Part shown: positions 19,723-61,709 of the stretch, piece by piece
Numbering within the stretch: position 1 is the stretch's first letter
How the letters are laid out: every line of letters starts with the position of its first letter
Virus record (IMG/VR): IMGVR_UViG_3300042298_003052
Coordinates: 32,001-96,000 of that record
DNA length: 64,000 bases
DNA from: a virus
Reading direction: 5' to 3' (one strand)
Translations under genes and position numbers: made by a program
Notes under the pieces: model-generated
Database searches by the model: none
What the model was told of the DNA's origin: nothing
Seen by the model: the letters and a program-made list of their open reading frames with translations, nothing else

Positions 19723-20100
19723 ATGAAAAGATTAACAACGATCGCTCTTTTAACACTAATATTTGCGATCTTCCCACATCAATCTGTTAAGGCACAAGAA
19801 TCGTTTTTAAGATTAGATAACCACTGTGAAGGACAACTGTACTTTCACAAGACTGTTTGCAAAGAAGTTTACCAGGATTACATAATTTGGTACGTTCTCC
19901 AAGATAACACGCTAGTAGGTATTATTGTATTCGATGATGCTTATAGCCTAAATGTCATTGAATCAGGAGAAAACTCCTATGTCATATTCTCAAAGGAAAC
20001 CAGTCAAATCATTACACAATCAGAAAACGGTTTCAGTACGATCTCACCCTATCGTGAAACATTTGAATATATTTTAAGTGCGATCGCGTCAGTACAATAA
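19723..20100 (+). CDS. Hypothetical exported protein
   Basis: Sec signal peptide MKRLTTIALLTLIFAIFPHQSVKA/Q. Confidence 0.6.
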   Translation: MKRLTTIALLTLIFAIFPHQSVKAQESFLRLDNHCEGQLYFHKTVCKEVYQDYIIWYVLQDNTLVGIIVFDDAYSLNVIESGENSYVIFSKETSQIITQSENGFSTISPYRETFEYILSAIASVQ

Positions 20101-29100: not shown

Positions 29101-32100
29101 ACGTACATCTTCTTTGTACTTGGTGACAATAGTTTCATTGGGATAATTAACAATTCTTCCTACTGCCGTTCTTGCGCTCTGAACGGCTTCTGAAGTGTTC
29201 TCTAACTGACCGGCAAGAGTTAATGCCTCATTAATAGAATCTCTCAATATTGTCAACTCGTCTTTTATTACTGACATATCAAAGGCTTTTCTTAAATTGC
29301 CCTGATACATATCAGCCATCAAGTATAGATCTTCTGCAAGCTCTTTCAAAATTGAGCTTATGTTCAAAACTTTTTTAACTGCATCAGAATTTGATTTAAT
29401 ACCTTTAATCAAACCTGCTACAACCATTTTACCAAAATACTCAGTTACTTTGGAAGGACTTCTAGTTTGAAGACCCTTTGCCATCGGGTCAATAATTCCA
29501 GTCTCAACAAGACGGGTAGCCTCAGCTTTTAAAGCATTAAAACGATCGCTGAATCCGACAGGATATCCATCTATAGTTTCTTGACCTAAACTTCTAGTTA
29601 AATCAGGACGTTCTATTTCTCTAGTATTGATTTTCTCATTAGCTCTATTTTTGGCTTGAGTAGCCTGACCTTTAGCAGCTCGTGCTAAGTTTGTAAATGG
29701 TGTAGTAGCACGGTCCCCTAAAACTTTTTGTAAATCGTCTATAGCTTTCCAAGCTTCGTCCGCAGTTTTAATAATTTCAGCAGCAGCTATTTTTTGTTCT
29801 TCTCTAGAATATCGATTTTTTTTATTCTCCACTATACGACGAAGATCAGCAAAATCTTCACTGATCTTTTTAACCATTTTTTGGTAGTCAGGCGGCGGTT
29901 GAGCAGCAGTTAACTGACGAACTTGTTGTTGGGATAATGAAGGTAACTCAGCAAAGTTACTAAAATCTTGAATAATTTCAGCATCAATAATGTCAGCATC
30001 TTGAGATCGAATATCGTTTAGAAAACTAGCTAATTCTCTAAGTTTATTCTCTATCTTAACGATCTGAGATTTAAGATTTGCTAACTGATTAGGTGCTAAA
30101 GGTTTCATACGATCTTGTGGTGATATTGCGACGATCGCCTCATTAACCTCTGTTAATAATCTATTGACATATCCTTGATCATTACCAGTATCATCTCCGG
30201 CTAACAACTTTATTTTTTGAATGATCGATTCATCTGGTTCACTAGAAACTAGAGCCGTCTGTATACTAGTAATCATATCTTTGGCCGCACTTAATTTTTT
30301 ACGGGATCCTTCTATAAATTCATTGGCAGCAGGCTGTGCGCCAGATAGTAGTTTGCCAGCAGATTTAGTTAGTTGAGCAAGAGCTGTTGCGGCAGAGATA
30401 CTTTTTTGAGCTAATTCAGCAATTGCCGCCGCTCCATCTTCAATACCAAGTGCGGAAGCTCTAGCAATTTGTTCTGGACCAATATCAGATATCTTTTCGA
30501 TAATGGGAGCATTAGCATCAAGCGAATCAGGATCTCCAGGTACTCTACGCATTATTCTATTTACTGCCGCCACAAGACGTGTTTCTGCCGCGATGGCCAT
30601 CGCTTCACCTGTTGACTCAGCGATATTAGTAAGACCCTCGCCAACGCCTTGCAAGAAAGATATGGCCATTTCAGAACCAATTGCAACGGCTTCCTCCGTA
30701 GACACCGTTACAGATGATCTTACCTCTCTAAGATCCGGTAGAGGTGTAGGTGGAGGTGATATGAGATTAGCGACGTAAGATTGAGTACCTAGAGTTGCTT
30801 GAGATTGTCTTGTTTTACGCTGATTCCGTTCCGCGACACGCTGAGACGTTTCAGGATCTAATCTAAGATTAGGTTGTACCTGATTGTTTATAAAATCAAC
30901 TAGCGTTGATGATATCTTCGTAGGATCAGGTGCGCGATCGAATGTACGAAGACCACCCAGTTCACCACCCTCTTCATAACCTTGAGCGACTAAGGATTCT
31001 AAATCTAATCCTTCGATCAGTTCAAAACGTCCGAGTTCTTTAGCTATAACTCGTCTAATTCCTTCCCATGCTTTGCGAATACCTTCTTTACGATCTTCTT
31101 CAATCGCTTTGGCCCATTCTTCCAGAGCCTTTTCTTGTTCTTTTGCTGACAATTTTTCAAACTCAGGCATTTTATCGGGTTTGATTATACTACGTCCATA
31201 ATCGATAGGAACCACCTTTCCTTCGTCTGATACAAAAACATTACCTGGATGATAGTCTCCGTGGGTCACACCTTTTTCATGAAGTGCTCTCAACGATGCT
31301 CCAGCCTGTTTAGCATACGCTGATACGTCATCTTTTGTCATATCTTTATTAGCAAGGTAGTCTCGACCTTCTTGACCTGCTATTGCTCGTTGAATAATAA
31401 AATCATCGCCCGACGCAAGAACGTCTGGAGCGACACCTTTAGCAATTTCCATAGCCTGAGCCTCACTAGCCATGCTGACAGCATTTTTAGCTAGTTTGTA
31501 AACAGCATCTTTGTTAGCATTTATAAAAGCGATACCTTTTGCCCCCTGTCCTAATATATATGCCATATTAGGATCTATTTTAGCTGATGGCTTACCCATA
31601 TCCTCAAGGGTCTTATTCATACCGCTAAGACGTTCCATCCAAGGTTCTGTAGCAGGTTGAGTATATTTCTTGGTTTGCCACTTTGTTTTAGGTGCATCAG
31701 GATCTCTAGGTGTTGGTCCTCGCATCCCGGTGGGAGGACCAACACCCTCTTTATAAGCTTTATTAAATATATCTTGTATATTTATCCCTTCAAGCAAAGG
31801 CATTTTTCCTTCTTTTACTAGCTTTAAAAGAAGCTCCATTGTTTTTTCGGTTCCTTCAGGAACCTTTGCCAAAATTCGCATAAAAGCTTCTTCGATTCTT
31901 TCTGGTGCTCTTTCGGCATCAGCTTTTATTTGTTCTTTAGAAGCGTTTACCTTGGCAGCACCTAAATCGATAGTTTTCATGCTTCCATCTTCCATCACAA
32001 AGATGTTACCTGCATGATAATCTCCGTGAGTAACTTTTTTTTCGTGTAGAGACTTGAGAAGTTTAGCTGCACCTTCTACATATTGAATGATAACTCCTTG

Positions 32101-35100
32101 GGTAAGCTCACCTGATTTTTCAAGTTCTTTAACCATGCTCCCCATATCCTTACCTTTTAATACTTCTTGCACTAATCGGTTATTTCCTACGTCATATACT
32201 TGAGGAGCTAATTCTGGGCCTACTGCTCTAAGAGCTTCGGCCTCAGGCTGCATCATTTTCTTAGTTAAGAGATTTAATGGATAGGGAGCATCCTTAAATT
32301 GTTCATAATCAACCCATTCGGGAGCACCTATTTTATTCATCTTAAAACCCTTTTCACGGGCTTGATCAGTAAAAATGATTCCGTTTACACCTTCACCGAG
32401 TACTTGGGCCTCGGCAGGGTTTAGATAACCGGATACAGCGGTTCCTCGTTTGTGTTGTTTGTTTAATTGAGCTAAATATTCCATCTGCTCAGGTTTAAAT
32501 ATAGGTGATTTCTCAGGAAAGTCAGGAGCCACCCCAAAGACTGAGTAGAATTTTTCCACCATATCAATGAGATTATCTGGATCTATTTCGTTACCGTTCT
32601 TCAATGATTGAATTAACGTGTCATATATCGATAAAAACGCTTCTACATCTTGCTTTGCTTGACCTGTTAGATTTTTCATTGATTTTCTCAGATCAGCTTT
32701 TAATTCATCATAGTTATACTCTATGTCAGACTTTTCTTGAGAATCGCCATAAGTTTTTCTTAATCGTCCCTCGGGAGTAACAAAAGTGTATTTGCCTGCT
32801 TTTTGTTCTTCGACAGCAGTGGGATCTCCAATCAAGACTCCTAATGTTCGTCGCATTGACTCTTGTAATCCTACTTGTTCTCCAGGACCGGAGTACATCA
32901 GATTATAAGCACGAACATTAGAAATCGAACGTTGTGTAGCCTGCTTTGCCAAAATGGGATCTATAACTTCTGGAGAAACAATCCGTTGTCTTACCTCATT
33001 AGGCTTAGTACCGCCATCGTATATTTCTCTTAAGATATCAGAGTTAAGTTTATTAGCGATCGCTTTAATTGTACCAGTAGGTAAAACAAATACTTCTTCT
33101 ATACTGGCTAACTCTTTAGTGATAGTATCTTTGTATTCGTCTATACGAGCCTTTATTTCCGTTTCATCTAGACCTAGATCTTTACTTTCTTTTTTAATTT
33201 TTTGTTGTTCCTCTATTTGAGATTTATCTGAGTACCTGTCAGATAAATTAATCAGAAATTCTGCATCGGCTGTTTTAGCAAAAGTTTTAATGTTTTCTAG
33301 TGTGATTTGCGACTCCGTTTTTTCTAATCTTAAGAACTTAGCTACTTCTTCTTGAACTTTAGGATTTTGTATAAATTGTCCTAAACTGTGTCCTGCGCCA
33401 GCACCAGGGATTATGGTTGTTGCTTTACCTGGACGCATAATACCTGACAAATTTTTAATAGTCCCTTCAGGAAGACCATAATCAGTCTCCATCTTTTTCA
33501 TTTCTTTTTCAAGCATTTTTTGATGTTGTTCTGACAATTTACTCATGTCAGAATAACGTTCACCAAATGATGCCAAAAATATAGGATCCATGTCACCTAC
33601 AAAGGCTTTAAAATTTTGAAGAGATGCTGTATTGGTTAAACCGTAAGTTCCCATTGTTAACCCAACACCTTTAGTGTTTTTAGCACCTCCTCGTTCAGCT
33701 ATAGCAGTGGCTTCTTCAGCAGCAAATGTACCACCAGATGTTCCAGCAAAAACGAATTTTTTACCGGGGTATTTTTTCTCGTAAGCCCTTCGTGTAGCTT
33801 CGAGTTTGATAGCGTCAGGGTTATAACCCGCATCTACGGCCATAGAAATAAGTTTTTCAAATTGAGAAGCTTCGTCACTCATTAATTGTTTCTCTAGATC
33901 GCTTCCAGGTGTTACTTGTCCTAATGAACGTAGTAAATCTAATAAAATACTTTTAAATTGTCTAATGGTTTGACCGGATTGTTTGTCATTAGAAAACTTA
34001 TTAGGAACAGGAACGGTAGCAACCTGTTCACCTAATAACTCTTTAAGAAGTACATTCGCGAAATAGGTATTGTCCCCAGGTCTTTCGTAATCATTACCAG
34101 GGATACCACCAGCGATTAATGCAATTGTTTCTTTGTCGTTGATACCTTCAATATCTGGGACATCAATCACTTCAGCTAATTGTTTGGATAGCTCCATAGA
34201 TTGAGCCAGCATTACACGTTTTTGAATACGATACGGTTGGGCGATTGCTCTAACGCCCACACCTGCCACTCTTCTACCACCTTCTGCTACCTCTTCCCAC
34301 GGTGGACGGATGTATTCGTCAATTCTAGATTTGGCACGTTTAGGATCGTTGTAAACTCGAACATCTTCTCCTACACCTACTAACAAATCTTCAAAAGTTT
34401 TTATGTTTCTAACTAACTTTCTGGGATCAAGAAAACTATCTAGTTTGCGTCCCAAATATGCTATGTCATCGCCTACTTCCTTTAAACCTCCTCTGTACCC
34501 AAAAGCTTCGGCTGTTACCATGGCAAGTCCTTTTGTTCGATTATATCCATATCGACCAAAATTATATCCAACTGTTTCGGCATCTGATCCTGTTTTACCC
34601 TCTATATATTTTTGAGCGCCTTTTGCAAAATCGTATGAGAGTGTTTGTCCCATACCTTCCACTGCGCCAGTGATAAACGTTTCAAAAGCCCTAGCTGGTA
34701 AACCAACAATTTTATCGACTAAAGTTTCTTTACTACTTGTATGGATAATTTTTGACATCTTCATCGGCATGTCGTCTTGAGACTTAATGTTCTGTTTGAC
34801 TGACATCGACAAAGCTGATATAGAATTGGCTAAATTCTCATTTGCTATTGTTAGACCTTTATTTTGTAGATGCAATTCTTGTAAAGAATTGTCCAACCGT
34901 AATAAAGATCTGCTTGGTAAGTAAGAATCTTCGTATGAGATTTCAGACGAAGACGTTTCTGTAGTGATTTTTACTTTCTTATCTGTTATACCATCGAATT
35001 GGTTTTTGAAATTACTCAATTCTTCTACATTAGTTTTTGGTGTTAACGGATTATCACCAAAATATTTGTTAACTTCTTTAAGGTGTTCACGCTTTCTCTC

Positions 35101-35307
35101 AATATGTTTATTTAATTTGGCTAAAGGTTCATGATCTACTGTTGGTTTTAATGTTTCTAGTTTAGTTTTACTTGTTATTCCTTTAATATTTCCTTCTATA
35201 TCCTTACCAGCTCGACTCGCAAGTTTTTGAATATCGGCAAGCTGTTTTGTAAACTTGGTATCGTCAAGTCCTAACTCTAAAATTAAACTCCCAAGAGTTG
35301 TTGCCAT
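20089..35307 (-). CDS. Giant multidomain tape measure protein (5072 aa)
   Basis: MATTLGSLILELGLD N-terminus; tape measure core (FTALSQMMDK..AEELRGQLAEALPG, ~26.3-26.9 kb); FAKGGV/FKNGGVV C-terminus; lies downstream of the tail chaperones; embedded enzyme motifs are described in findings. Confidence 0.9.
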   Translation of the reverse strand: MATTLGSLILELGLDDTKFTKQLADIQKLASRAGKDIEGNIKGITSKTKLETLKPTVDHEPLAKLNKHIERKREHLKEVNKYFGDNPLTPKTNVEELSNFKNQFDGITDKKVKITTETSSSEISYEDSYLPSRSLLRLDNSLQELHLQNKGLTIANENLANSISALSMSVKQNIKSQDDMPMKMSKIIHTSSKETLVDKIVGLPARAFETFITGAVEGMGQTLSYDFAKGAQKYIEGKTGSDAETVGYNFGRYGYNRTKGLAMVTAEAFGYRGGLKEVGDDIAYLGRKLDSFLDPRKLVRNIKTFEDLLVGVGEDVRVYNDPKRAKSRIDEYIRPPWEEVAEGGRRVAGVGVRAIAQPYRIQKRVMLAQSMELSKQLAEVIDVPDIEGINDKETIALIAGGIPGNDYERPGDNTYFANVLLKELLGEQVATVPVPNKFSNDKQSGQTIRQFKSILLDLLRSLGQVTPGSDLEKQLMSDEASQFEKLISMAVDAGYNPDAIKLEATRRAYEKKYPGKKFVFAGTSGGTFAAEEATAIAERGGAKNTKGVGLTMGTYGLTNTASLQNFKAFVGDMDPIFLASFGERYSDMSKLSEQHQKMLEKEMKKMETDYGLPEGTIKNLSGIMRPGKATTIIPGAGAGHSLGQFIQNPKVQEEVAKFLRLEKTESQITLENIKTFAKTADAEFLINLSDRYSDKSQIEEQQKIKKESKDLGLDETEIKARIDEYKDTITKELASIEEVFVLPTGTIKAIANKLNSDILREIYDGGTKPNEVRQRIVSPEVIDPILAKQATQRSISNVRAYNLMYSGPGEQVGLQESMRRTLGVLIGDPTAVEEQKAGKYTFVTPEGRLRKTYGDSQEKSDIEYNYDELKADLRKSMKNLTGQAKQDVEAFLSIYDTLIQSLKNGNEIDPDNLIDMVEKFYSVFGVAPDFPEKSPIFKPEQMEYLAQLNKQHKRGTAVSGYLNPAEAQVLGEGVNGIIFTDQAREKGFKMNKIGAPEWVDYEQFKDAPYPLNLLTKKMMQPEAEALRAVGPELAPQVYDVGNNRLVQEVLKGKDMGSMVKELEKSGELTQGVIIQYVEGAAKLLKSLHEKKVTHGDYHAGNIFVMEDGSMKTIDLGAAKVNASKEQIKADAERAPERIEEAFMRILAKVPEGTEKTMELLLKLVKEGKMPLLEGINIQDIFNKAYKEGVGPPTGMRGPTPRDPDAPKTKWQTKKYTQPATEPWMERLSGMNKTLEDMGKPSAKIDPNMAYILGQGAKGIAFINANKDAVYKLAKNAVSMASEAQAMEIAKGVAPDVLASGDDFIIQRAIAGQEGRDYLANKDMTKDDVSAYAKQAGASLRALHEKGVTHGDYHPGNVFVSDEGKVVPIDYGRSIIKPDKMPEFEKLSAKEQEKALEEWAKAIEEDRKEGIRKAWEGIRRVIAKELGRFELIEGLDLESLVAQGYEEGGELGGLRTFDRAPDPTKISSTLVDFINNQVQPNLRLDPETSQRVAERNQRKTRQSQATLGTQSYVANLISPPPTPLPDLREVRSSVTVSTEEAVAIGSEMAISFLQGVGEGLTNIAESTGEAMAIAAETRLVAAVNRIMRRVPGDPDSLDANAPIIEKISDIGPEQIARASALGIEDGAAAIAELAQKSISAATALAQLTKSAGKLLSGAQPAANEFIEGSRKKLSAAKDMITSIQTALVSSEPDESIIQKIKLLAGDDTGNDQGYVNRLLTEVNEAIVAISPQDRMKPLAPNQLANLKSQIVKIENKLRELASFLNDIRSQDADIIDAEIIQDFSNFAELPSLSQQQVRQLTAAQPPPDYQKMVKKISEDFADLRRIVENKKNRYSREEQKIAAAEIIKTADEAWKAIDDLQKVLGDRATTPFTNLARAAKGQATQAKNRANEKINTREIERPDLTRSLGQETIDGYPVGFSDRFNALKAEATRLVETGIIDPMAKGLQTRSPSKVTEYFGKMVVAGLIKGIKSNSDAVKKVLNISSILKELAEDLYLMADMYQGNLRKAFDMSVIKDELTILRDSINEALTLAGQLENTSEAVQSARTAVGRIVNYPNETIVTKYKEDVRSNARRVLTEPPDSDIHPVVHEIPADAKKIIFVSSGFTGTKGRISNEITDKLKPMIPQGTHTIPFENKNFDVSGTLNDVGLTRVVMDAIIMPMKAVRKGINEEALRLAKQAYAVKQERPDVEIGFVGHSAGGFIVREAQEILKNIGIISEALSMGTPLLGAFQAIKSDVISLIGEGDPLKRFTGQKEAIIPNVKGHFSPHYLDESNEIREILTRYLEEGITPSLIARVHELGETIKGLEPGNSGPVMRFDRLRQSQSYQQAYLLKTHTNTIDVKAEEVKNNKIQPLWSVDRNTKDSFDEDMSNEVTRNIGEIIDTLDDITPKARKVFEELVTEIAALSDVEVKEMPTAKNASMQLLGTRAGGAYLPEYNTIFLDDETEEALESLHDIKGLDIPISLKVIEDEVREVYKRLNNNTSDDIYNDYNDELDLAYETVNKKYSNITEDIISLFEAMDTIVHEIRHAAQVGFQKINDPYSRNLLLTPSYNRESDREYARNIAGSVELAKKSAKEQGIDINPHYINKLERDAYGFSHQYTRDIIRSYQRYNNTKTENILPASKNIGSELGSGIAIGINNSSREATNAAMNMAEAVIDITHSTFDIKSPPEWAIKIGRFISEGISNGISDGINYVRESIKSLKTKTVNDIKEWAKTPPEESFMPFSVSGERPEAEIPVIGPAYAFMLDSMESMKNMATFVPKLGRSLGEVFEGLSQNIPAMMSITKGFLFFNYIVVPLVGTLFSFEEAAFQTAVELENMATTINFVSGSASEGAKNIDLIRNKVISLGGDLKSSMQGFAQLGASAQGTRLEGEGTRQIFSAISQAAVVYQMTPEEQQQAFTALSQMMDKTVVSAEELRGQLAEALPGSISVAARAMGVTTQELGKMMQAGEVMAEDLLPKFAQQLSAETAMGVSGSARSAQTAINKLNNEITLFQQGYGNTTIPIRVVGLNIATKGIQILRENVVALSVVFTALLVTISATLVQELAKFFVKFAGMNQTIALIGESFSGLFTRMKQELITFGKSFLTWFAVITVATDVFKIFSKGFGDASGGAKDLADSNKKAWEDYTKTLEDARQKTKEFNEQPSFKVFKESGGVTAIKELFTGGGLGGYVGDIIESVSNIDGSRESYGNVLKSVTGIKQIVDISNSAKKFFEAFKDGIGISSGLERLISGESLLEDTFFGGLIGDKASRIFERGTQSFIGNITDGNDIRDYTDPIGLALGGLKNIGLDLSRTWEDVKAEQADIAINDLQSYSGKIYEEARTTLYPGNKPGQQLQEIIDLDVRLQSAQQELQGTSREDVEKQRDLNEQINNLIAEREKLYIPVGKQLANLQLSEENIKSAIKLRKEELARLGDSEEDNIRRESLQGNIATLESDLKLTKSLIDKINSGIANTVTRLDLLARGFRLVNAEMENAYYNLEMRSAQKNALLMRSVAPGNSGLLEGTQNLVQQQMTSEKIAINRDSLQKLETIAYDPEYIKALENANLAMNATAADIQAAIDNIGEDSSLSKTLTNLVEVRQKFEQTGLETDQLVAELETTKRQLEEQLWQMGRQLEDMLIEVGQQTEEIAHSFKEFENDRKVANASNTITRTMGKLRTDHFSGMMNILERFINVIGEQLKSTSDFLKQKMDVMNQLFNTLRQNEQFALSIPQIDQGVIGSQGTNGRNVASPLMGQSIESLVSYKPTEGQSFRAGRTRNGRQEYHAGIDWDSKVGGGRGADVAAPFSGTARVIDIAEQKGDRGNAVQVRITTQDAKGIPIDLQFNHLELESVKKALGIGIGENTNVSMGQLVGEVIQHHLDMKVKVNGQFVDAQQWLAAMNAGGGVARNLQGVNVNINPISQPASRTAQSTPQQSGVEMFRNYAPVASRVASMGPGRIPMGGTVRTAERVQSDPAGAQAMIAAAQRLGLDPREFAALMSWESAGSFNPNIRGGDNNLYKGLIQFSPDNQRKYGTNTQQSIAQQMPAIERYLLDRGFRPGEHDIRHAYSAILAGQAGESYWNRKDSNQTTVRNAAPRFRQGDHRQRAEQFLRDSGIGMNELMSEKEQFERFMREGYALTEKKDYQSALINFRRAEELRPDNKYTTQAISNVTGYINRSRPTTTSSSATTLDVSSYTQSSNQLLSENQKYVNMLQQNANDQIKLIEQMKALADERFDAQIDSMFSEVNREGITAKRGTEDAKLQQERQDRDRKYQSIPEFRMTPEIQLEYDLDMASRDIEDRRIELQRQIEDAQNDIDAVTQLLETMPNQLIEAGAKEEDVRRIEEGFREIISQKQPLIDILRKNLADLTAMEGEALLKISEEYKMEEERRYMEFINQLTELTGENLRQQAELLRNDGEQALAEELEKQADAADIIQKEKEYQFGLKEQLNSGLDRDRYDQLLAESIKRQILALEILGYNIDRNTEQLRLNNSSFLLEQRAANVEALTPLLNRTGEAGNARDLSYEIEALKIQQDLESQIFDLYEGSKGLTEETRERSRLLIEETAQLKLQTLELEQALQVRADQIEQSRNPLVGPGGVTDLMGAQDAYLGAFGASPTEAMKQERLPFLLDMQRLDYQNAILELEKLKNAGKLTDEGFKAMSESLSKINDIKMDQIRQEASMLPDVIKNVRGPVQGLFSDLMKGTKTVGEAFNDFVNGLIDNLMNLAAEMLTNNLFAGIFGGAAGISSDTGNGIIEMLFGTSRSRSPEEDPNVLMQTPRYNPLLQGAMDYSSYLFPSTGEIRDPSLTEYGKSLFGASTEDVTLTTGAEQASASLRLGGEMVLSSLQLGAQAIQQAAVSIQTPNALGTISEGLFDLGGFDLTFENGAQSIQSAIEAGADRGGAQLGSVVMGVFSGSSSTAVSKGGFSIGGVFQSLLSTILGMFFKDGGVIKTDTGLGIENFAKGGVIGRSQSTLDKLASTEAIGQALKREGNPKARLAVVSPGEWVLNRQQQAIAKRYGVDENVLNFKNGGVVGGSFSTPAIKAPSGGSTSVTVPITINSDGNNPEKDNKAARDLSQKVRAAVFQVLTEQKRPNGLLY

Positions 35308-53844: not shown

Positions 53845-54050
53845 ACTACTTGGATCATTTAATTAAAACTACCACGTTGGAAAAAATCTCGTATTTGGTA
53901 AAAACATTTGGTAGAAAAGAATTGGAAGTTCTCTATCAAAAATTGAAAACTGTCACAAACTCGGACGACGAAGTGATAAATAAAAGTCGTGGAGAAATAG
54001 AAACAAAGGTGATAGAACTTTTCAAAAAGACAAAAAATGAAAAGTCCTAG
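53838..54050 (+). CDS. Hypothetical protein
   Basis: Overlapping operon ORF. Confidence 0.5.
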   Translation: MLNYLDHLIKTTTLEKISYLVKTFGRKELEVLYQKLKTVTNSDDEVINKSRGEIETKVIELFKKTKNEKS

Positions 54051-54267
54051 AAAAGCCTGGTGTATACATTACATTGGAAAGATTAAAGGTAAACACACGG
54101 CGTATAGAAAAGCTATAGCCATACAATACAAGGATGGTGCGATGTTACCTTACGGTATTGTCTTTTTTGCCAAACACGGGAAAAGAGATGGATACTACAT
54201 AACAAAATCGCTAAACGTTAATCCAATGTATGTAGATAGTAAAGAACTGTTTCTGACACCGCTATGA
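54037..54267 (+). CDS. Hypothetical protein
   Basis: Overlapping operon ORF. Confidence 0.5.
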   Translation: MKSPRKAWCIHYIGKIKGKHTAYRKAIAIQYKDGAMLPYGIVFFAKHGKRDGYYITKSLNVNPMYVDSKELFLTPL

Positions 54268-54884
54268 ACATAGTGAATCTGCCGCCTCTCCCAGTTCTTA
54301 TAAGATCTGAGTATTTAGAGAATGGTGACTCTAAAAGACTTATAAAAGCACGATTAGCCACTGTAAAAAGTGTGCCAGGAGAGGCGTTTAGATTTGAGGT
54401 GTATATACCAGAATACGGAGCGTTATATGACAAACTTCCAATAGAATGTATTCTGCACAAAGAAGGAAATAATTACTTACAAACAAACGAATTACAGTTA
54501 TGGGATTGTTTTGATAATTACATTAATGTGATTAAAAAAAGCGTTATAAACAATATAGATTGTATAGCCTATATAAGAAGCAAAAAGATGAGAGGTTATT
54601 ATGTTCTTACTATAGATAGTTATACCCCATCAGATAGACTATCTTTAAGTTATACAGAAGATCCAGAAGAACATAAAAGTTTTAATATGATCGCATTAAA
54701 TAACGGTCAATTTGCGCTTTTACCTAACAATAGAGTTCAGTTTGTAGACGCAAGTTTAAGTGGTAGCGATAATCCTCCCTTACCTAAATTCAAAGTGGCC
54801 TCCAAACGGTACTACTGTGAAGGAGGATCTATCGCTACCGATGATTGGTCATACAGACTAACTTCAGAGGAGTCTAGCAGCTAA
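54264..54884 (+). CDS. Conserved phage hypothetical protein
   Basis: GALYDKLPI, LQLWDCF, EHKSFN, NGQFALLPNNR motifs recalled from uncharacterised aquatic phage proteins. Confidence 0.65.
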   Translation: MNIVNLPPLPVLIRSEYLENGDSKRLIKARLATVKSVPGEAFRFEVYIPEYGALYDKLPIECILHKEGNNYLQTNELQLWDCFDNYINVIKKSVINNIDCIAYIRSKKMRGYYVLTIDSYTPSDRLSLSYTEDPEEHKSFNMIALNNGQFALLPNNRVQFVDASLSGSDNPPLPKFKVASKRYYCEGGSIATDDWSYRLTSEESSS

Positions 54885-56183
54885 TTCACTCAAAGGCGAT
54901 CGCTCTGTCTTACTCAATGTTATATGAGCAGAAAGATCGCTTTCTTTGAACCGTTCTACGACAAGACTTAACCCATTGCTACCACTATCTAAATAACTAC
55001 TATCTATTTGAGTAGGATCTCCAGATAGTATACATTTAGAACCTTCACCGATTCTAGTTAAAACGGTCTTCACTTCTGATGGACTCATATTCTGAGCTTC
55101 GTCTACCCATATATATTGTTCTGGTAGCGATCGTCCTCGTATGTGAGCAAGTGATTCAGCCTGTATAAGACCTTGTTCCTCTAGATCGTCATAAGCACTA
55201 CGTTTGGTCTTTTTGTCGTGCTTATAGTTACAAATCACATCAAGGTTGTCTTTGATCGGAGCTAACCAAGGTGTTAGTTTCTCACTTAATGATCCTGGTA
55301 AAAACCCTAAATCGTTCTTAGAGCCTCCCATAGGCATTGTAGGCTTGGAAACCAACATACGAGTATAAACACCCGCCTGTACCTTTGATAAGCCCACAGC
55401 TAAGGCCATAAGACTCTTACCTGTACCAGCAGCACCACTTATCGTTACAAGGGGTACAGAGTCATCTAAGAGTAAATGCAGGGCAAATGTTTGTTCTCTA
55501 TTTTTAGGAGTGATTCTACTAATTTGATCCAGCTTTGGTAACGCTCTGATCACTCCCTGTTTATAGATCGCTAGAACAGTATGAGAAGGATTCGCTACAT
55601 CTCGTACAGTTATACACTCGTTAGGGAAGTAAGGATCGTTTGTAACAATACCGCGATCAAATAACTGACTCATTTGATCTGCTGTCATAACGGTTTCTGA
55701 GTGACCATCATATAAATGTGTGTGGTCAATTTTCTCAGATCTGTAATCTTCTGTCTTTACACGAAGTCCACCCGCTTTTACACGGAGATTTATATCTTTA
55801 GTTACAAGAACAACTTGTTCATCACTCTTTTCTCGTAACTCAGTTAGATATTTGGCTGTGGCGAGTAGACAATTATCAACTTTATCTCTAGACAATTCAG
55901 CCGGTATCTTAGATATAATTTCTTGACTGATGACAGATATAATTAGTTTGCCACCGTTAGGTAAAGATACACCTTGAATTAAATCGCCTTGTTGACGTAA
56001 TTTATCAAGCTCCCTAGAAACGTGTCTTGCATTACGATTTAATACGCCATCTCCTGTTTTGAAAGAATCCAATTCTTCTAAAACACTTATACAAAGAACT
56101 ACAACATTATCATCAAACTTGTATATGGATAGGCTGTCATGCAATAGAACATTGGTATCTAGAACGTAATACTTTACCATCAT
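54864..56183 (-). CDS. phoH: PIN-domain PhoH-family protein (PhoH2/YlaK type)
   Basis: VLDTNVLLHD PIN motif, DN..L, VTKDINLR; GAAGTGKS, GFLPG, RGRSL, DEAQN, GDPTQID, ERS. Confidence 0.92.
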   Translation of the reverse strand: MMVKYYVLDTNVLLHDSLSIYKFDDNVVVLCISVLEELDSFKTGDGVLNRNARHVSRELDKLRQQGDLIQGVSLPNGGKLIISVISQEIISKIPAELSRDKVDNCLLATAKYLTELREKSDEQVVLVTKDINLRVKAGGLRVKTEDYRSEKIDHTHLYDGHSETVMTADQMSQLFDRGIVTNDPYFPNECITVRDVANPSHTVLAIYKQGVIRALPKLDQISRITPKNREQTFALHLLLDDSVPLVTISGAAGTGKSLMALAVGLSKVQAGVYTRMLVSKPTMPMGGSKNDLGFLPGSLSEKLTPWLAPIKDNLDVICNYKHDKKTKRSAYDDLEEQGLIQAESLAHIRGRSLPEQYIWVDEAQNMSPSEVKTVLTRIGEGSKCILSGDPTQIDSSYLDSGSNGLSLVVERFKESDLSAHITLSKTERSPLSELAARLL

Positions 56184-56232
56184 TCACACAGATCGCATCG
56201 ATCTATATAATAATTGATTCAAACTCGTGCGA

Positions 56233-56406
56233 TCAAAAGGACGGATTTAGACAAAAAAAAAGACCCTTTTCAGGGTCACAATTGATACCTTTCTTAAGGC
56301 GTTCTACCAGTAATCGATGTGCTGCTAACCATGCTTGATGTTTGCGCGGCGTTTTCTTGCTCTTCCTTTGAGGTTCGCCACTTGCTTGCCAGTTAGGTTG
56401 TATCAT
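56233..56406 (-). CDS. Small basic protein (57 aa) with a terminator inside the ORF
   Basis: AGGAGG RBS before ATG 56406; MIQPNWQASGEPQRKSKKTPRKHQAW... Confidence 0.55.
   Translation of the reverse strand: MIQPNWQASGEPQRKSKKTPRKHQAWLAAHRLLVERLKKGINCDPEKGLFFCLNPSF
56253..56277 (-). terminator. Rho-independent terminator inside the small basic ORF
   Basis: GACCCT-GAAA-AGGGTC followed by T9. Confidence 0.75.
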
Positions 56407-56424
56407 GGTATGTCCTCCTGTAGA

Positions 56425-56497
56425 AGCCGCCACCGAGACTCGAACTCGGAACCTTCGGTTTACAAAACCACTGCTCCACCGATTGAGCTATGGCGGC
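56425..56497 (-). tRNA. tRNA-Thr(TGT)
   Basis: GCCGCCA/TGGCGGC acceptor stem, TAGCTCAATCGG D arm, loop TT-TGT-AA, GTTCGAGTC T arm. Confidence 0.9.
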
Positions 56498-56560
56498 ATG
56501 ACCTGTGCAATACTATAGCACCTATGATATGATATCGACAACCAATTAGCTTAGGAACCA

Positions 56561-56761
56561 ATGGAAGAACTTACCTTAGAACAAGAACTTGAATTGGTCG
56601 TATTCGATAAAAAAGTCGATATGATGAGCGGCGATCAGGCCAGGGATTTATTAAAGAAAGTTCACAGAACCATGATAATCAGAGAAACAATGTATAAGAC
56701 TATACTGAAAAAAAGTCTGGGTGTAAAGGATTATCAACAAAACATTAATCGTCAACTATGA
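56561..56761 (+). CDS. nblA: Phycobilisome degradation protein NblA
   Basis: LTLEQEL.L..F...V..MS.DQARDLL......MIIRETMYK.ILK matches the NblA consensus. Confidence 0.85.
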   Translation: MEELTLEQELELVVFDKKVDMMSGDQARDLLKKVHRTMIIRETMYKTILKKSLGVKDYQQNINRQL

Positions 56762-56991
56762 AAATTCAAATCTGTCCTGTTTGTGAAACTCGGGTTTTAG
56801 AAGGTAGATTTTATGTTAGTAGACCTGTTAAGAACGGTGAAACGTTCGAGCGGATCTATGATGTAGAGTTTCCACCAGATGTACAACACACACGTATTTG
56901 TCAGTACGCTAAGAAACAAGGATGTCTGAACACCTGTAAAGTTATTAATGAAAAGGAACTTTTTGAAAATCGAAATCTCGGAATTAATTAA
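56758..56991 (+). CDS. Hypothetical Cys-rich protein
   Basis: CPVC...RICQYAK..GCLN; ATGA coupling to nblA. Confidence 0.6.
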   Translation: MKIQICPVCETRVLEGRFYVSRPVKNGETFERIYDVEFPPDVQHTRICQYAKKQGCLNTCKVINEKELFENRNLGIN

Positions 56992-56993
56992 AA

Positions 56994-57406
56994 TGTATCT
57001 GATCGCTAAGAATAAATATAGGTTTGATATACCTATTAGTCTTCAAAGAAACCATCTCCTAGATATATGGCATCTAGACAAAGCTCATTGGTTTACTTTG
57101 TGCGGTGTAAAAGTAAAAGAAGTTTTTTCAAAATCTTCTGAGTTAGTACGATTTAATCTAGAACGTTTTGGTCACACACAAGAAGTGACTATAGAACAAG
57201 ATCGCAACGTCACGAAAGTTAACGTGAATAACTGCATGTTAATCTTTACCATTGAGGAAGAGAAGGAAAATCATCACTTTCTGAATGTAGAAATGCGATC
57301 TGACTATAGAGTGCTGCGTATACTGTGGCCGATTATCCAGTTGGTGTTTCTATTGACGGTCATAGAAGACATCGTGTATTATAAAAAAAGTGAGACATTA
57401 GCTTAA
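56994..57406 (+). CDS. Hypothetical protein (SRPBCC-like character)
   Basis: ATG 56994 follows the upstream stop; 3' end overlaps tRNA-Lys. Confidence 0.45.
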
Positions 57407-57462
57407 CGGTAAAGCACGGGGCTTTTAACCTCTTGATGGAAGTTCGATTCTTCCATGTCTCA
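57392..57462 (+). tRNA. tRNA-Lys(TTT)
   Basis: GAGACAT/ATGTCTC acceptor stem, loop CT-TTT-AA, GGAAG-TTCGATT-CTTCC T arm. Confidence 0.85.
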
Positions 57463-57497
57463 TTCTCATTGAACAGTTAACAAAGGAGGACATAGAA

Positions 57498-57974
57498 ATG
57501 GTATCAATTAACAGAGATGTTTTGGAAGAACGTATTCTTGACTTTGAAGATGCGGTGACCGCCGCAGGTACAGAGTTTTACGGTATCGGACCACTGTTTG
57601 GGGATATTGTCCGCCACTGGCTGCAAAAACAAACTGGAGAAAGTGTAGAGCTGTTGGCTATTGCCCTCGCGATTGAAACGTGGCTACGCGATGACTTTGC
57701 TAAGCTCGTAGAGCAATACGCTAGTAGAGAGAAGTATGCAGGTTCCTTGGAGGGTAAAATCGACACTATTGTACGTGTAGCCAAAAATCGGCTCATTACA
57801 GCCAAAGAAGCCTGGTCTGAGGGTAGAGAGTTTTATTCCACTATCTATGGCCAACATCATGAGCTCAAGCGCAAGCTCATGAAGGAATCCTCCGACGAAG
57901 AGATAATGGATAGTATTCATGAAACGGCTGCTGAAAATAGAGATAACCGTAGGCTGATACGGGGACAAGGCTAA
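57498..57974 (+). CDS. Hypothetical protein
   Basis: AAGGAGGA RBS; lies between tRNA genes. Confidence 0.65.
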   Translation: MVSINRDVLEERILDFEDAVTAAGTEFYGIGPLFGDIVRHWLQKQTGESVELLAIALAIETWLRDDFAKLVEQYASREKYAGSLEGKIDTIVRVAKNRLITAKEAWSEGREFYSTIYGQHHELKRKLMKESSDEEIMDSIHETAAENRDNRRLIRGQG

Positions 57975-58024
57975 AGGCGCACTTTGAATAACGGAACAGA
58001 AATAAGGAAATAAAAAGCGGTTGT

Positions 58025-58053
58025 TTGAAAAGCGTCTCTATTTGTTCTATAAT
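58025..58053 (+). promoter_or_regulatory. Sigma70-type promoter for the tRNA pair
   Basis: TTGAAA-17 bp-TATAAT, 14 nt before tRNA(CAT). Confidence 0.7.
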
Positions 58054-58067
58054 ACTTAAAAAAATAC

Positions 58068-58140
58068 CCAGGGTTGGCCGAGCGGATTAGGCAACGAACT
58101 CATAATTCGTCTTAGGTAGGTTCAACTCCTACACTCTGGA
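58068..58140 (+). tRNA. tRNA with CAT anticodon (probably Ile2, lysidine type; Met not excluded)
   Basis: CCAGGGT/ACTCTGG acceptor stem, ACGAA-CTCATAA-TTCGT anticodon arm; resembles cyanobacterial trnI-CAU and lacks the initiator GGG/CCC stem. Confidence 0.85.
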
Positions 58141-58144
58141 CTTC

Positions 58145-58220
58145 CCTCTGCTGGGCTAATTGGACAAGCCACCACCCTTCTAAGGTGTTCATCATCCTGG
58201 TTCAAGTCCAGGGCAGAGGA
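58145..58220 (+). tRNA. tRNA-Arg(TCT)
   Basis: CCTCTGC/GCAGAGG acceptor stem, GGCT/AGCC D stem, loop CT-TCT-AA, CCTGG-TTCAAGT-CCAGG T arm. Confidence 0.85.
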
Positions 58221-58242
58221 TCAATCTATTAATCGCATAAAC

Positions 58243-58280
58243 AAAAAAAAAGATCGCAATTGGGTGACTCAATTGCGATC
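58243..58280 (-). terminator. Rho-independent terminator
   Basis: GATCGCAATTG / CAATTGCGATC stem with a T-tract on the minus strand; separates convergent units. Confidence 0.75.
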
Positions 58281-58315
58281 CGGAAACCATGTTCTAAACC
58301 TAAAACTATTATAGA

Positions 58316-58489
58316 CTAACTTTCTTCAAACGATCGCACTTTGTTACAATATCGTGCGAATTGGCCATAGGTCCAACCATTACGTTGGCACATCCAATTG
58401 CGATGAGCTTGTGCCCACATCTCGTCATTCGGATAATTCTCCCTTAGAGGAGCTGGATTTGTCAGGTCGAACAGAGTTTTTAGTACCAT
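58316..58489 (-). CDS. Small hypothetical protein (57 aa, not in the ORF track)
   Basis: MVLKTLFDLTNPAPLRENYPNDEMWAQAHRNWMCQRNGWTYGQF...; fills the gap before the terminator but overlaps the upstream gene by 65 nt. Confidence 0.35.
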   Translation of the reverse strand: MVLKTLFDLTNPAPLRENYPNDEMWAQAHRNWMCQRNGWTYGQFARYCNKVRSFEES

Positions 58490-59069
58490 AGATGATTTTT
58501 AACTCACTCAATACAAATATATTACCATCTCTCTTAGCTTTACCGACTACATGACGACCGAATTTTAATCCTTTTGGTAACTTGAAATCTTCTGGTATGA
58601 CAACATTATAAAAATTAAAATCTTTGTTGCTGTGTCCTCTACGTCCTACATACAAAGCTAAAGATGTATCACTTGTGCTCTTACCGACACTAGCTTCAAA
58701 TTCTAGCCAGTCAACAGGACGATCGCGACCATCACCACAAGCAAACGGTACGATACCCTGAAATTTGTTCAATGCTTGAGGATAAACTGACCAGAGATGA
58801 TCCTCTTTGAAATACTTTTCTATATCCGCTAGAACTCTAGTAATAAAAGTAGAATCAGATCGCGCCAGATCCAAAACTCTAAATACTGATCCATCAGTGC
58901 ATCTAAACATCAAAGTGCGATCGCCCTTATCGTTAGGCAAAGATCGTACTAGCCTACCATTGAGCCATGCAACACATTTGAAGTCAATTTTGTTACCTTT
59001 TTTATAAGATGGCTTTTTAGAGCGATCTGCTTTTTGTTCAGGTGTTAGAATGACAGGTTTAGAGATCAT
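58425..59069 (-). CDS. Hypothetical protein
   Basis: AAGGA RBS; basic and beta-rich. Confidence 0.6.
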   Translation of the reverse strand: MISKPVILTPEQKADRSKKPSYKKGNKIDFKCVAWLNGRLVRSLPNDKGDRTLMFRCTDGSVFRVLDLARSDSTFITRVLADIEKYFKEDHLWSVYPQALNKFQGIVPFACGDGRDRPVDWLEFEASVGKSTSDTSLALYVGRRGHSNKDFNFYNVVIPEDFKLPKGLKFGRHVVGKAKRDGNIFVLSELKIIYGTKNSVRPDKSSSSKGELSE

Positions 59070-59102
59070 AAACGTCCTTTAATGTGCGATGGATAGAGTA
59101 TA

Positions 59103-61709
59103 TCACAGTTCGTTTGATTCGCTGTTGTCTCCAAAGTATACAATCTCAACGTCGGTTTCTTTATAGGAAGGAATAGGATATCCACTGTAAAGATAAACCG
59201 TACAATCGTTTCTAAGAATACGAGATCGTCCGATCGCTTGAATAAGATTAGATTCGATTAATGCACATTGAATAGCTTGAAGGTTTGGATCTTCAAATGT
59301 GTTTAATTTGAATCTATATCCGTTTCGATTGATCACAAGAGTCGTGGTATTAACATGGTCCGCCGTCAAATAGTCTAAACCCATTGCAGCAGCAATAATG
59401 AAAACCTGATTGGGAGAAGGATAGGGAGTGCCTACCACGTTGATACTATTTCCATTCAAAGAATCATATCCTGCACAATTACCGAAATAGGAGTCAGCAG
59501 GATTCTTAAATTTATGTCTAAAATCTTTGAATGTGATAGTAGGTAAATCTCCGGCTTTATCAACCACTTTGTTTATGGTATTGGGAACATTTAGACTAGA
59601 TTTGCTACAGGAGTTAGACATATCCTGGACCAAGTTGCCTACAGGCACGACATTGGAAATATCGATAAATTCTAAGCGATCGCCAAATAGTTCGCGATAA
59701 ATATGTTCATCAGCGGTAGCGGAAAGAATAATAATTTTGCGATCTGTAGGAATATCTTTCTTATGGGCATAGTGCATCTTACCTTCAAACTTGTCATCAT
59801 TAACGTAGAAGCCCTTCATACGGAACAGATCTAAAATGTTGCCTGAGAAGTGTCCAGAAGGGGCAGCAGCAACTAAACTAATCAACTCGCTTAGTGTATC
59901 ACTCAGATTGACTCTGATGGTCTCAACGGTCTTCAGGCGCTTGTTAATGTACGTTTGATATTCCTTGATTACAGGGAGAAAATCTCTTTTAAGTTGTTGA
60001 GAACCTTCAGTGTCCACCAAGTTCTCAAGTCGATAAAGATCTTCACGGGTTACATAATGAGAAGGAATAATGACATTTAAAATATCTTCATCACAGATAA
60101 TAGTTTTACAATGACCAAAAGGATATTTACCGTCTTTTTGATTCTTCGTGAACATCTTAGCGTGGGTAGTCCACACAGATTTGTGATTTTGTCCATAGGT
60201 CAGACTATTGGCCTGAAAATACAAATCCAAAGCGTTTAAGACTTCAGGACTGTTAGAGGTATCCTTTCTAAGCGCTGCGATCTTATTTTGAGCAACTTGG
60301 TAAAGACCGACAGAATAATAATACTCAAGCTCTGAGGCAAGATCTTCAGGGATACAATCAGGTAGTTTAGGAGTAACGTATACAGGTAAATTGAACAAAA
60401 TACTGTTCCGTTTGATTGGTTCGATCGCTAAAAGATCATCAAACGAAGGAATACCAATCTTTTTACCTAATTCATCTTTAAGAGCATGAGTAGGAAAAGC
60501 ATAAGCTACAGGTTCATGAGTATCGTTGAAAGAATCTATTAACAATGTGCTCTTGCCTAATCCAGTAGCACAATTGAAAACATAAACTTTAGTGTCATTA
60601 GATTCACAAGCCTTCAAAAATTCATGTTTCATTTTTCTTTCTGCATCCTTTAATTGAAACGCCTTTCTTACATAGTTTGCCACAGGAACAGGTTCGGAGT
60701 ACTGATTTGAGTAGGTAGCCTGAAGAATATTCTTATATTCCCAATCTTCCTCAAAAGGACTAAAATTCTCTAAGCGAGAAGGATTATAATCACGACCCTT
60801 GATAGAAGAGAGAACTGCATAATGTTTACTCTCATAGGTACCAGTGGCATCCATCACCTGTCTCATCCACACTATACCACCTTCAATACACTGAAGATTG
60901 GTAGCAATACCAAATAGTTCGGGATAGGTTAGACGCGCTCCAGCATTATACTCCTCCGTCGAACGAATGAATCCGCCCATCTTAAAACTCTTTAATATTG
61001 TGAGCTTATCAGATAATTCTCCAAAGTCAACGCCTCTAATAAGTTCGATATCGGCTTCAGTATGTTGAAATTGTAAAAGTTCTGCGATCGTATCTTTAGA
61101 GACTCTGTTCTTAGCCTTCGTTGAATGTCCACTGATAGCAACTTGATGATTACGCGCAGCAGCTTCAAGTTCAGTATATGTTAAGGAACGAGAATCAAAA
61201 TTGGGATATAGTATCTCTTTACCACCATAATACCAACGATTACAGTTTGAACACTGCTTATCAGATTCAGGAAACAAGAATTTAGCCAGTAAAAATTGGA
61301 TAGAATCAGCCACTTCCATAGATGTAGCGGCATCACCTAAATCGAAAATGATCCTAAATCTTGGATCGCTACCAGTATGAGAGAACGTACTATAAAAGAA
61401 TTTCCAAGGAAGATGATAAAAGTCAAGTCTCTCTTTGAATATATCAGCAGGTAACTTACACTCGAAATCGACTTCAAAAATTCGTTGATACAACCAGTTG
61501 TCTTTCTCACATCCTTTGCCGTCAGTGATCATAGGTAAAACACTATGTCCCTCAACGATGAGATCAGCTAATTCTTCCCAACTCTTTTCAACCTCATAAT
61601 TGAATATTCTTTTTGCGATCGCAGGTGCAGGAGATCCTTTTCCCTTCCCTTTAGGAGGACGATCGCTGAATTTCTGAGGGTCTACACAAAATCTAACTCT
61701 GTCTTTCAT
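59103..61709 (-). CDS. AEP-like primase fused to an SF2-like helicase (plasmid/phage Rep type)
   Basis: N-terminal VDFE, YSTFSH, PRFRIIF, D..C....R.YYG; C-terminal ATGLGKS, AFPTH, TTHA, ICDED, LSATA, QAIGRSR. Confidence 0.75.
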   Translation of the reverse strand: MKDRVRFCVDPQKFSDRPPKGKGKGSPAPAIAKRIFNYEVEKSWEELADLIVEGHSVLPMITDGKGCEKDNWLYQRIFEVDFECKLPADIFKERLDFYHLPWKFFYSTFSHTGSDPRFRIIFDLGDAATSMEVADSIQFLLAKFLFPESDKQCSNCNRWYYGGKEILYPNFDSRSLTYTELEAAARNHQVAISGHSTKAKNRVSKDTIAELLQFQHTEADIELIRGVDFGELSDKLTILKSFKMGGFIRSTEEYNAGARLTYPELFGIATNLQCIEGGIVWMRQVMDATGTYESKHYAVLSSIKGRDYNPSRLENFSPFEEDWEYKNILQATYSNQYSEPVPVANYVRKAFQLKDAERKMKHEFLKACESNDTKVYVFNCATGLGKSTLLIDSFNDTHEPVAYAFPTHALKDELGKKIGIPSFDDLLAIEPIKRNSILFNLPVYVTPKLPDCIPEDLASELEYYYSVGLYQVAQNKIAALRKDTSNSPEVLNALDLYFQANSLTYGQNHKSVWTTHAKMFTKNQKDGKYPFGHCKTIICDEDILNVIIPSHYVTREDLYRLENLVDTEGSQQLKRDFLPVIKEYQTYINKRLKTVETIRVNLSDTLSELISLVAAAPSGHFSGNILDLFRMKGFYVNDDKFEGKMHYAHKKDIPTDRKIIILSATADEHIYRELFGDRLEFIDISNVVPVGNLVQDMSNSCSKSSLNVPNTINKVVDKAGDLPTITFKDFRHKFKNPADSYFGNCAGYDSLNGNSINVVGTPYPSPNQVFIIAAAMGLDYLTADHVNTTTLVINRNGYRFKLNTFEDPNLQAIQCALIESNLIQAIGRSRILRNDCTVYLYSGYPIPSYKETDVEIVYFGDNSESNEL

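Follow-up and report, generated by a model that had tools for sequence, protein, structure and literature searches.

Why would a gene carry a transcription terminator ahead of its own stop codon? The question is raised by a small open reading frame (ORF) of 57 codons on the minus strand of IMG/VR virus record IMGVR_UViG_3300042298_003052, which comprises 139,448 bp with direct terminal repeats and is taken here as a cyanophage (see below); bases 32001-96000 of this record (64,000 nucleotides, hereafter the window) were analysed. A preliminary description of this DNA had placed an AGGAGG site and the 57-residue ORF directly after a tRNA-Thr gene, with a GACCCT-GAAA-AGGGTC-T9 terminator ending about 17 nucleotides (nt) before the TGA, and had inferred, with ArfA and BrfA as models, a candidate phage-encoded ribosome rescue factor or a sensor of trans-translation status. 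All of these elements were found in those places on the minus strand, and the distance from the end of the T-run to the TGA is exactly 17 nt (56252..56236). The answer that we tentatively prefer, with a little less than even confidence, is that the ORF encodes a BrfA-like, convergently evolved partner of release factor 2 (RF2) that is made from non-stop mRNA, beside the gene for a PIN-PhoH RNase. The evidence consists of a hairpin retained in related loci, a conserved peptide core followed by tails that vary freely, and a structural model of the peptide in complex with RF2.

The terminator within the small ORF

The ORF runs from an ATG at 56406 to a TGA at 56235..56233, and its peptide contains QRKSKKTPRKHQ. 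Codons 1-43 (56278..56406) form the core that is conserved in alignments A1 and A2, consisting of NWQASG, the basic stretch PQRKSKKTPRKHQ, the amphipathic helix AWLAAHRLLVERLKKG, and then INC. Codons 44-51 (DPEKGLFF; 56253..56277) are occupied by an intrinsic terminator, comprising the hairpin GACCCT-GAAA-AGGGTC (56277..56262; 6 bp, 4 of them G-C), which was recovered in the terminator scan, and a run of nine T residues (T9; 56261..56253). Beyond the terminator lies a tail of CLNPSF plus the TGA (56233..56252), which is not conserved in relatives. Transcripts terminated in the T-run would, judging from this layout, lack a stop codon.

Scanning of the whole record identified only seven sites at which a hairpin is combined with at least six T residues. 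On both strands together, the record contains 15 T-runs of at least eight residues and four of T9, and a perfect hairpin of at least 6 bp directly abuts three of the runs of at least eight, the terminator of the small ORF being one of the three. A looser scan of positions 54000-60000 returned seven terminator-like sites, compared with 3.4 +/- 2.0 in shuffled sequences. The hairpin is present in the minimum-energy fold of the RNA extending from the tRNA to the stop codon. It is also identical in six of six related loci (L002-L007), where it is followed by T8 rather than T9; among these loci the codon just before the hairpin varies synonymously (TGT/TGC), and the hairpin itself is unchanged. The premise of the preliminary description, namely a terminator placed before the stop codon, is therefore borne out by the sequence of the window and by all six loci. 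A structured non-coding RNA was considered and rejected, since the tRNA-to-stop RNA folds no better than shuffled sequences (z = -0.56); searches for a non-coding RNA family with Rfam returned the tRNA alone, plus a sub-threshold hairpin match on the opposite strand.

The ORF is part of a compact minus-strand unit made up of a promoter-like site, tRNA-Thr, AGGAGG, the 57 codons, and the hairpin with its T9. The first gene of the unit is tRNA-Thr with anticodon UGU (tgt; 56497..56425), which was predicted using ARAGORN and scored 63.4 bits with the Rfam tRNA model, and which also lies immediately ahead of the ORF homologs in L002, L007, and the distant copy L008, the loci in which this could be inspected. 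Upstream of it, TTGTCG, an 18-nt spacer, and a TG-extended TATAGT (56541..56512) match the promoter consensus at 9 of 12 positions, with TG before the second hexamer. This site is kept in L002-L007 with one spacer change; it is a consensus match, and because the promoter scan yielded 18 sites where 18.0 were expected, it is weak evidence when taken alone. If it were used, transcription would begin a few bases before tRNA-Thr, and 3' processing of the tRNA would leave an 18-nt leader that includes the Shine-Dalgarno sequence AGGAGG (56419..56414), located 7 nt before the ATG. The latter reads AGGAGA in L007, and the spacer that follows it is 2 nt shorter in L002-L006. An alternative start at a GTG inside the tRNA, which would give a product of 66 residues, is unused by most homologs, which begin at the ATG position.

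The peptide family and its tails

The small ORF is, with high confidence, a real and conserved protein-coding gene, as judged from its codon changes and its homologs. The six related loci represent five distinct contigs (a single contig appears under both L004 and L006) and three haplotypes, and over 51 codons all six of the codons that vary relative to the window carry synonymous third-position changes, with no nonsynonymous change. Alignment of 30 codons with the distant copy L008 gave 10 identical, 12 synonymous (one of them a switch between the Ser codons AGC and TCA), and 8 nonsynonymous codons. By these patterns, the 43-residue core is under purifying selection. Approximately 14 metagenomic relatives have this core in common. 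A word-based protein search yielded six clusters, and a HMMER search of the whole library yielded 11 matches, nine of which are small proteins of 42-78 residues; the other two, both long repeat proteins, were dropped as false positives. In the 15-row alignment A2 the core comprises NWQASG, PQ.KSKKTPRK.Q, the amphipathic helix.WL.AH..L..RL..G, and then IN, with conservation extending to GIN. The AlphaFold (AF2) model of the peptide places helices at residues 5-9 and 21-39, with a mean predicted local distance difference test (pLDDT) value of 74 and values below 50 for residues 48-57. The basic stretch spans residues 12-23 in a peptide of about 50 and comes before the helix, and DPEKGLFF forms the C-terminal end.

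Pfam gave no match for the window ORF at E <= 1 and, at E <= 10, no relevant family for a single one of the 15 members, and PHROGs gave a single weak match, for P0006 only (E = 0.0044), to an entry whose function is unknown there. The protein atlas returned unnamed viral clusters only, with a score of 0.78 that is below the reliability mark of the atlas. Scans for homologous DNA with alignment A1 recovered one close lineage and L008 only, and the A1 scan of the genome collection was empty; scans of viral contigs with P0008, P0007, P0011, A3, and A4, as well as a genome scan with A3, gave no match. Members P0013/P0022, which have 42 residues and an ordinary stop, are found on contigs of up to 358,742 bp, which would stem from a very large phage or else from a cellular genome; in the second case, the family would extend beyond phages.

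The distant copy (L008:3001-3800) is located after tRNA-Leu and tRNA-Thr, keeps about 33 residues of the ORF, and then continues in frame into unrelated DNA. The G+C content rises from 0.41 to 0.54 at this junction, and beyond it are the C-terminal part of a larger protein and ORFs that were named by eye as ImmA/IrrE-like and PIN-like. Recombination, an integration junction, or a chimeric assembly could each account for the junction. L008 is uninformative with regard to the terminator because only the first 33 or so residues are kept.

Sequence comparison shows that the tails past the T-run are unconstrained in both length and frame, as would be expected if they are rarely or never translated. 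In the T8 relatives the frame reads V and then TAA, which places the stop 3 nt beyond the run, and in the window, with T9, it reads CLNPSF and then TGA, 17 nt after the run; whether the T9/T8 difference is real or an error, the tail is under no constraint to stay in frame. In a second lineage, adding one T to the T-run of P0002 (FLIANQ...) would yield exactly the tail of P0003 (FFNS-stop), as is the case for 4 of 576 back-translations, against 144 possible 5-mer outcomes, and the tails of P0015 and P0023 part ways directly after FFL. In all 14 sequences that have a tail (P0023 and 13 of the 15 A2 rows), Phe comes directly behind a stretch rich in Gly/Ala/Pro, and the core is free of Phe in 12 of 16 sequences. 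Each tail opens with a short segment that is acidic or rich in Ser/Gly/Pro, after which come Phe and T-rich codons. Such a pattern has the look of a translated hairpin plus U-tract, and a hairpin is presumed for these homologs from their protein sequences. Back-translation of the tails into hairpins was considered and set aside as a test without power, since degenerate third positions bring stems of 6-8 bp within reach of most peptides.

The expectation of the preliminary description that homologs keep a terminator before the stop holds for part of the family. It agrees with the same hairpin in L002-L007 and is consistent with the tails of the wider family; however, two of the 15 members, P0013 (42 residues) and P0014 (44 residues), have an ordinary stop that falls at the hairpin position or ahead of it, an outcome that the description had itself named as refuting the idea. 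These two members indicate that the core alone can be the product and that part of the family does without the non-stop layout.

Modelled binding to RF2 and rival explanations

RF2 was chosen as the partner for complex modelling because ArfA and BrfA both act through RF2, and it was the sole partner modelled. Synechocystis RF2 was combined with residues 1-51 of the family alignment in three runs, which scored 0.65, 0.65, and 0.69, whereas all three controls (two unrelated small proteins replacing the peptide, and an unrelated 348-residue protein replacing RF2) scored 0.00. The mark is one that 58 of 80 solved complexes attained in calibration, as did 2 of 110 mismatched pairs, figures that apply only roughly here given that our own alignment was used. 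The runs agreed in at least 76% of contacts, and the pLDDT of the partner was at least 56. On the peptide, the interface consists of residues 22-23, 26-27, 30, 33-34, 36-38, and 40-43, which correspond to the conserved face of the helix plus GIN; on RF2, it consists of residues 144-182 and 207, which would lie in the codon-recognition domain 2 as placed by position rather than by alignment of RF2 sequences. ArfA and BrfA are likewise described as binding domain 2 of RF2 (PMC5378476; PMC6881298). Support for binding of the small protein to RF2 thus comes from the model only, and the pass is less likely to be a memory of solved complexes, because the sequence is unlike ArfA or BrfA and the modelled contact is a helix and not an added strand.

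Under the mechanism that we propose, tRNA-Thr and the small ORF would be co-transcribed from their own promoter, tRNA processing would expose the 18-nt leader with its strong Shine-Dalgarno site, and most transcripts would end in the U-tract without a stop codon. Ribosomes arriving at the 3' end would stall there, having translated about 50-51 codons (...DPEKGLF(F)). As long as host transfer-messenger RNA (tmRNA) and SmpB have spare capacity, the product would be tagged and degraded; when trans-translation is saturated by cut mRNAs during infection, perhaps with the aid of PIN-PhoH, untagged peptide would build up. The conserved helix and GIN motif (residues 22-43) would then bind RF2 domain 2, the N-terminal NWQASG and basic stretch would contact the empty decoding site or the mRNA channel, and RF2 would release peptides from stop-less ribosomes, returning these ribosomes to phage translation. 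Within this scheme we infer the efficiency of termination, the control by tmRNA, the binding to the ribosome, the release of peptides, and the link to PIN-PhoH. The logic proposed would be shared with BrfA and ArfA, to which the sequence is unrelated.

Several points weigh against this reading. The stem of the terminator is short (6 bp) and begins 130 nt into the ORF, and in Escherichia coli the translating ribosome is reported to repress terminators that lie more than 100 bp into a coding region (PMC4824070). In the T8 relatives only 3 nt separate the run from the stop, such that a transcript ending slightly late would include it, and the difference between T8 and T9 could be a homopolymer sequencing error. 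The hairpin was seen as DNA in one closely related lineage, and in the other homologs it is presumed from tails. Contigs from four metatranscriptome runs covered parts of NblA, PIN-PhoH, and tRNA-like pieces and none lay over the small ORF, a result that is uninformative with respect to expression or the 3' end. The RF2 of Synechocystis is a stand-in for that of the host, and the complex score is the model's own confidence and not a measurement. Finally, while the proposal of an ArfA/BrfA-like rescue factor is partly supported by the conserved coding gene, the unconstrained tails, and the passing of three controls by the RF2 model, no sequence homology to ArfA, BrfA, or ArfT was detected, and the basic stretch of the family is N-terminal, as opposed to the C-terminal tails of the mRNA-channel sensors ArfA, BrfA, ArfB, and SmpB. 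In ArfA and BrfA the basic tail is described as coming last and lying in the mRNA channel (PMC5378476; PMC6881298).

The comparison with known factors was made by several routes. The family profile was searched against all PDB chain sequences at E <= 10, and the only matches were Noggin and Csx28 (E ~0.3, chance level), with no rescue factor among them; BrfA chains are among the PDB entries. Alignment with E. coli K-12 ArfA using hhalign covered nine columns with a probability of 7%, and PF03889 (ArfA) found nothing in the virus record and exceeded its cut-off in one of 14 control genomes. In the case of arfA, the mRNA undergoes RNase III cleavage at a hairpin instead of termination. The phage ORF differs in having an intrinsic terminator, and PF03889 has no match in the phage family. 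A short motif, NW(E/Q)ASG, is common to both: NWQASG is N-terminal in the phage family (window 56391-56374, minus strand, codons 5-10), and E. coli ArfA has the similar NWEASGKK at its C-terminal end (codons 50-57), a likeness that is unexplained and is treated as a coincidence.

The features of E. coli ArfA (YhdL, PF03889) used for comparison were its stop-less mRNA, its repression by trans-translation, and its recruitment of RF2 via domain 2 (PMC5378476; PMC10107115). BrfA (Bacillus subtilis YqkK), which is RF2-dependent and whose level is described as kept low by trans-translation (PMC6881298), resembles the phage product in being a small basic protein and in having an intrinsic terminator inside the ORF, which removes the last nine codons and the stop from the BrfA mRNA (PMC6881298) and would remove six codons and the stop from that of the phage. 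Further likenesses are a partner surface on RF2 domain 2, which is modelled for the phage protein and described for BrfA (PMC6881298), and a Lys-His pair in the basic stretch, termed the 'KH motif' in PMC8012679 and represented by K22-H23 in the phage protein. BrfA differs in being cell-encoded and in the order of its parts: its N-terminal helices precede a beta-strand that adds to the RF2 sheet, and the basic tail is C-terminal, whereas the phage protein is reversed, with the basic stretch followed by a helix that is modelled as packed on the domain. There is also no detectable sequence similarity, as judged from the PDB profile search rather than from direct comparison with the BrfA sequence. 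Low compatibility between species is reported for BrfA and ArfA systems (PMC6881298). ArfT of Francisella tularensis is described as a protein of about 40 residues with a charged helix that recruits release factors (PMC6514570; PMC8012679), and in these respects it is similar; it differs in working with RF1 or RF2 and in having a helix that often occurs in repeats. The Pfam family that we take to be that of ArfT was absent from the matches of the 15 members, a comparison made by family and not directly with the ArfT sequence. Among phages, gp30 of pelagiphage HTVC027P is reported as an ArfA-domain protein that bears the annotation of an alternative rescue factor and whose expression takes place in infected cells (PMC12753301); it is a phage gene as well, but it carries PF03889 and is thus a true ArfA homologue, unlike the small ORF family.

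The alternative that survives best, although we consider it unlikely, is that of an ordinary small phage protein with another role, for example in nucleic-acid binding or directed at another host target. The hairpin and T9 would then be the terminator of the tRNA-Thr unit, overlapping a dispensable tail; the protein would be made through read-through or from released non-stop products, with control by tmRNA being incidental. The two members that stop before the hairpin position fit this account, as do the lack of homology to any rescue factor, a 6-bp stem that may leak, and the unnamed viral clusters returned by the atlas. Set against it are the RF2 model, which passed where every control failed, and the recurrence of the terminator-before-stop layout across lineages, as far as the tails show. 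Moreover, a stop before the hairpin costs a single mutation, yet none is present in 13 of the 15 members.

Improbable, in our view, is a translation-coupled attenuator of the pyrBI type. The pyrBI leader of E. coli is a short ORF that passes through an intrinsic terminator upstream of the downstream gene, and attenuator leader peptides are usually constrained at a few codons only. By analogy, a ribosome moving through the hairpin would block termination and send polymerase into PIN-PhoH, slow or absent translation would let the terminator form, and the ORF would serve to sense translation capacity. The likeness is that the small ORF spans the hairpin and T9 and that PIN-PhoH (54864..56183, minus strand) is the next gene on the same strand, beginning 69 nt past the end of the T-run, with only a weak promoter-like site (9 of 12 matches in the promoter scan; 56236..56207, minus strand) between them. 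Ribosomes of E. coli are also reported to repress terminators in the later part of a coding region or immediately past it (PMC4824070). What matters in pyrBI is the act of translation and not the peptide, however, whereas here 43 residues are under purifying selection, two members are without the tail altogether, and the RF2 model suggests that the peptide has a function of its own. Attenuation and the BrfA-like rescue reading are compatible and can coexist.

More improbable still is a modulator or inhibitor that binds RF2 and alters host termination at UGA/UAA or the frameshift autoregulation of RF2 without rescuing ribosomes. The model puts the conserved helix on RF2, and the computed results fit blockage as well as activation. 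Avoidance of TGA is not seen, however: it is the stop of 35 of 138 crude phage ORFs, so that a block of RF2 would hurt the phage, which needs a working RF2; a recruiter therefore fits better than an inhibitor, for which the non-stop layout would also be of no obvious use. A decoy, in which abundant stop-less mRNA from a strong tRNA unit would occupy tmRNA-SmpB and blunt host trans-translation with the peptide being secondary, is very improbable: the strong Shine-Dalgarno site, the compact unit with its tRNA, and the terminator before the stop would suit it, but it has no need of a conserved peptide, yet the core is under purifying selection and two members have normal stops.

The BrfA-like reading can be extended to a wider claim, which we regard as possible and distinctly doubtful. 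The small ORF family would be a third, independently evolved family of RF2-recruiting rescue factors and the first from a cyanophage, gated by trans-translation through a terminator before the stop and deployed with phage tRNAs and PIN-PhoH, and the phage would thus generate stop-less ribosome complexes as well as clear them; its architecture would be reversed, with an N-terminal basic sensor and a C-terminal RF2-binding helix. Among the papers returned by a literature search on cyanophages and ribosome rescue, none deals with a cyanophage rescue factor as far as title and abstract show. To our knowledge no alternative release factor (RF)-dependent rescue factor has been described in cyanobacteria, and the titles and abstracts returned likewise gave none. 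The RF-dependent rescue factors ArfA, BrfA, and ArfT are small proteins with no sequence relationship to one another, which makes them easy to overlook in homology searches, and further factors of this kind are predicted in a review (PMC8012679). A conserved small ORF with a terminator before its stop would be a signature for finding such factors from sequence data. If the claim is true, a phage-borne example for cyanobacterial hosts would show viruses managing ribosome stalling during takeover, and the family would provide a compact RF2-binding peptide.

Virus, host, and neighbouring genes

The octamer GCGATCGC, which we take to be the HIP1 palindrome typical of cyanobacteria, is present in 62 copies in the 139-kb record, compared with 0.74 expected from base composition, and 31 of the copies are in the window (e.g., at 54896 and 58917). 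This excess, together with an NblA-family phycobilisome-degradation gene (56561..56761, plus strand; Pfam 2e-16) that is divergent from the tRNA-Thr unit, points to a cyanobacterial host and hence to a cyanophage. A metatranscriptome contig spans 56564-56791, covering the NblA gene, which does not by itself prove transcription. No close cultured phage was found in the collection, in that tblastn with the ORF gave chance matches (E >= 1) and blastn of 2 kb against cultured phages matched the tRNA only.

The PIN-PhoH gene downstream of the small ORF is of the PhoH2 type (Pfam PIN_4, 2.6e-27; PhoH, 7.3e-45). Its product is a possible source of cut mRNAs, and it is also the gene that any read-through of the terminator would reach. 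PIN-PhoH and Pth2 are discussed as ribosome-repair functions of jumbo phages (PMC7824862).

The phage has four tRNAs in all (Thr, Lys, Met, and Arg), which are clustered within 1.8 kb around the small ORF, and in relative L007 the place of the window's tRNA-Met is taken by tRNA-Ile(tat). A second T9 terminator of the record, with a stem of 11-12 bp (58251-58281, minus strand), is located opposite the tRNA-Met/tRNA-Arg pair (companion coordinates 57391-58220, plus strand). Elsewhere, a single ORF of 5072 codons at 20089-35307 (minus strand) is very large for a 139-kb phage.

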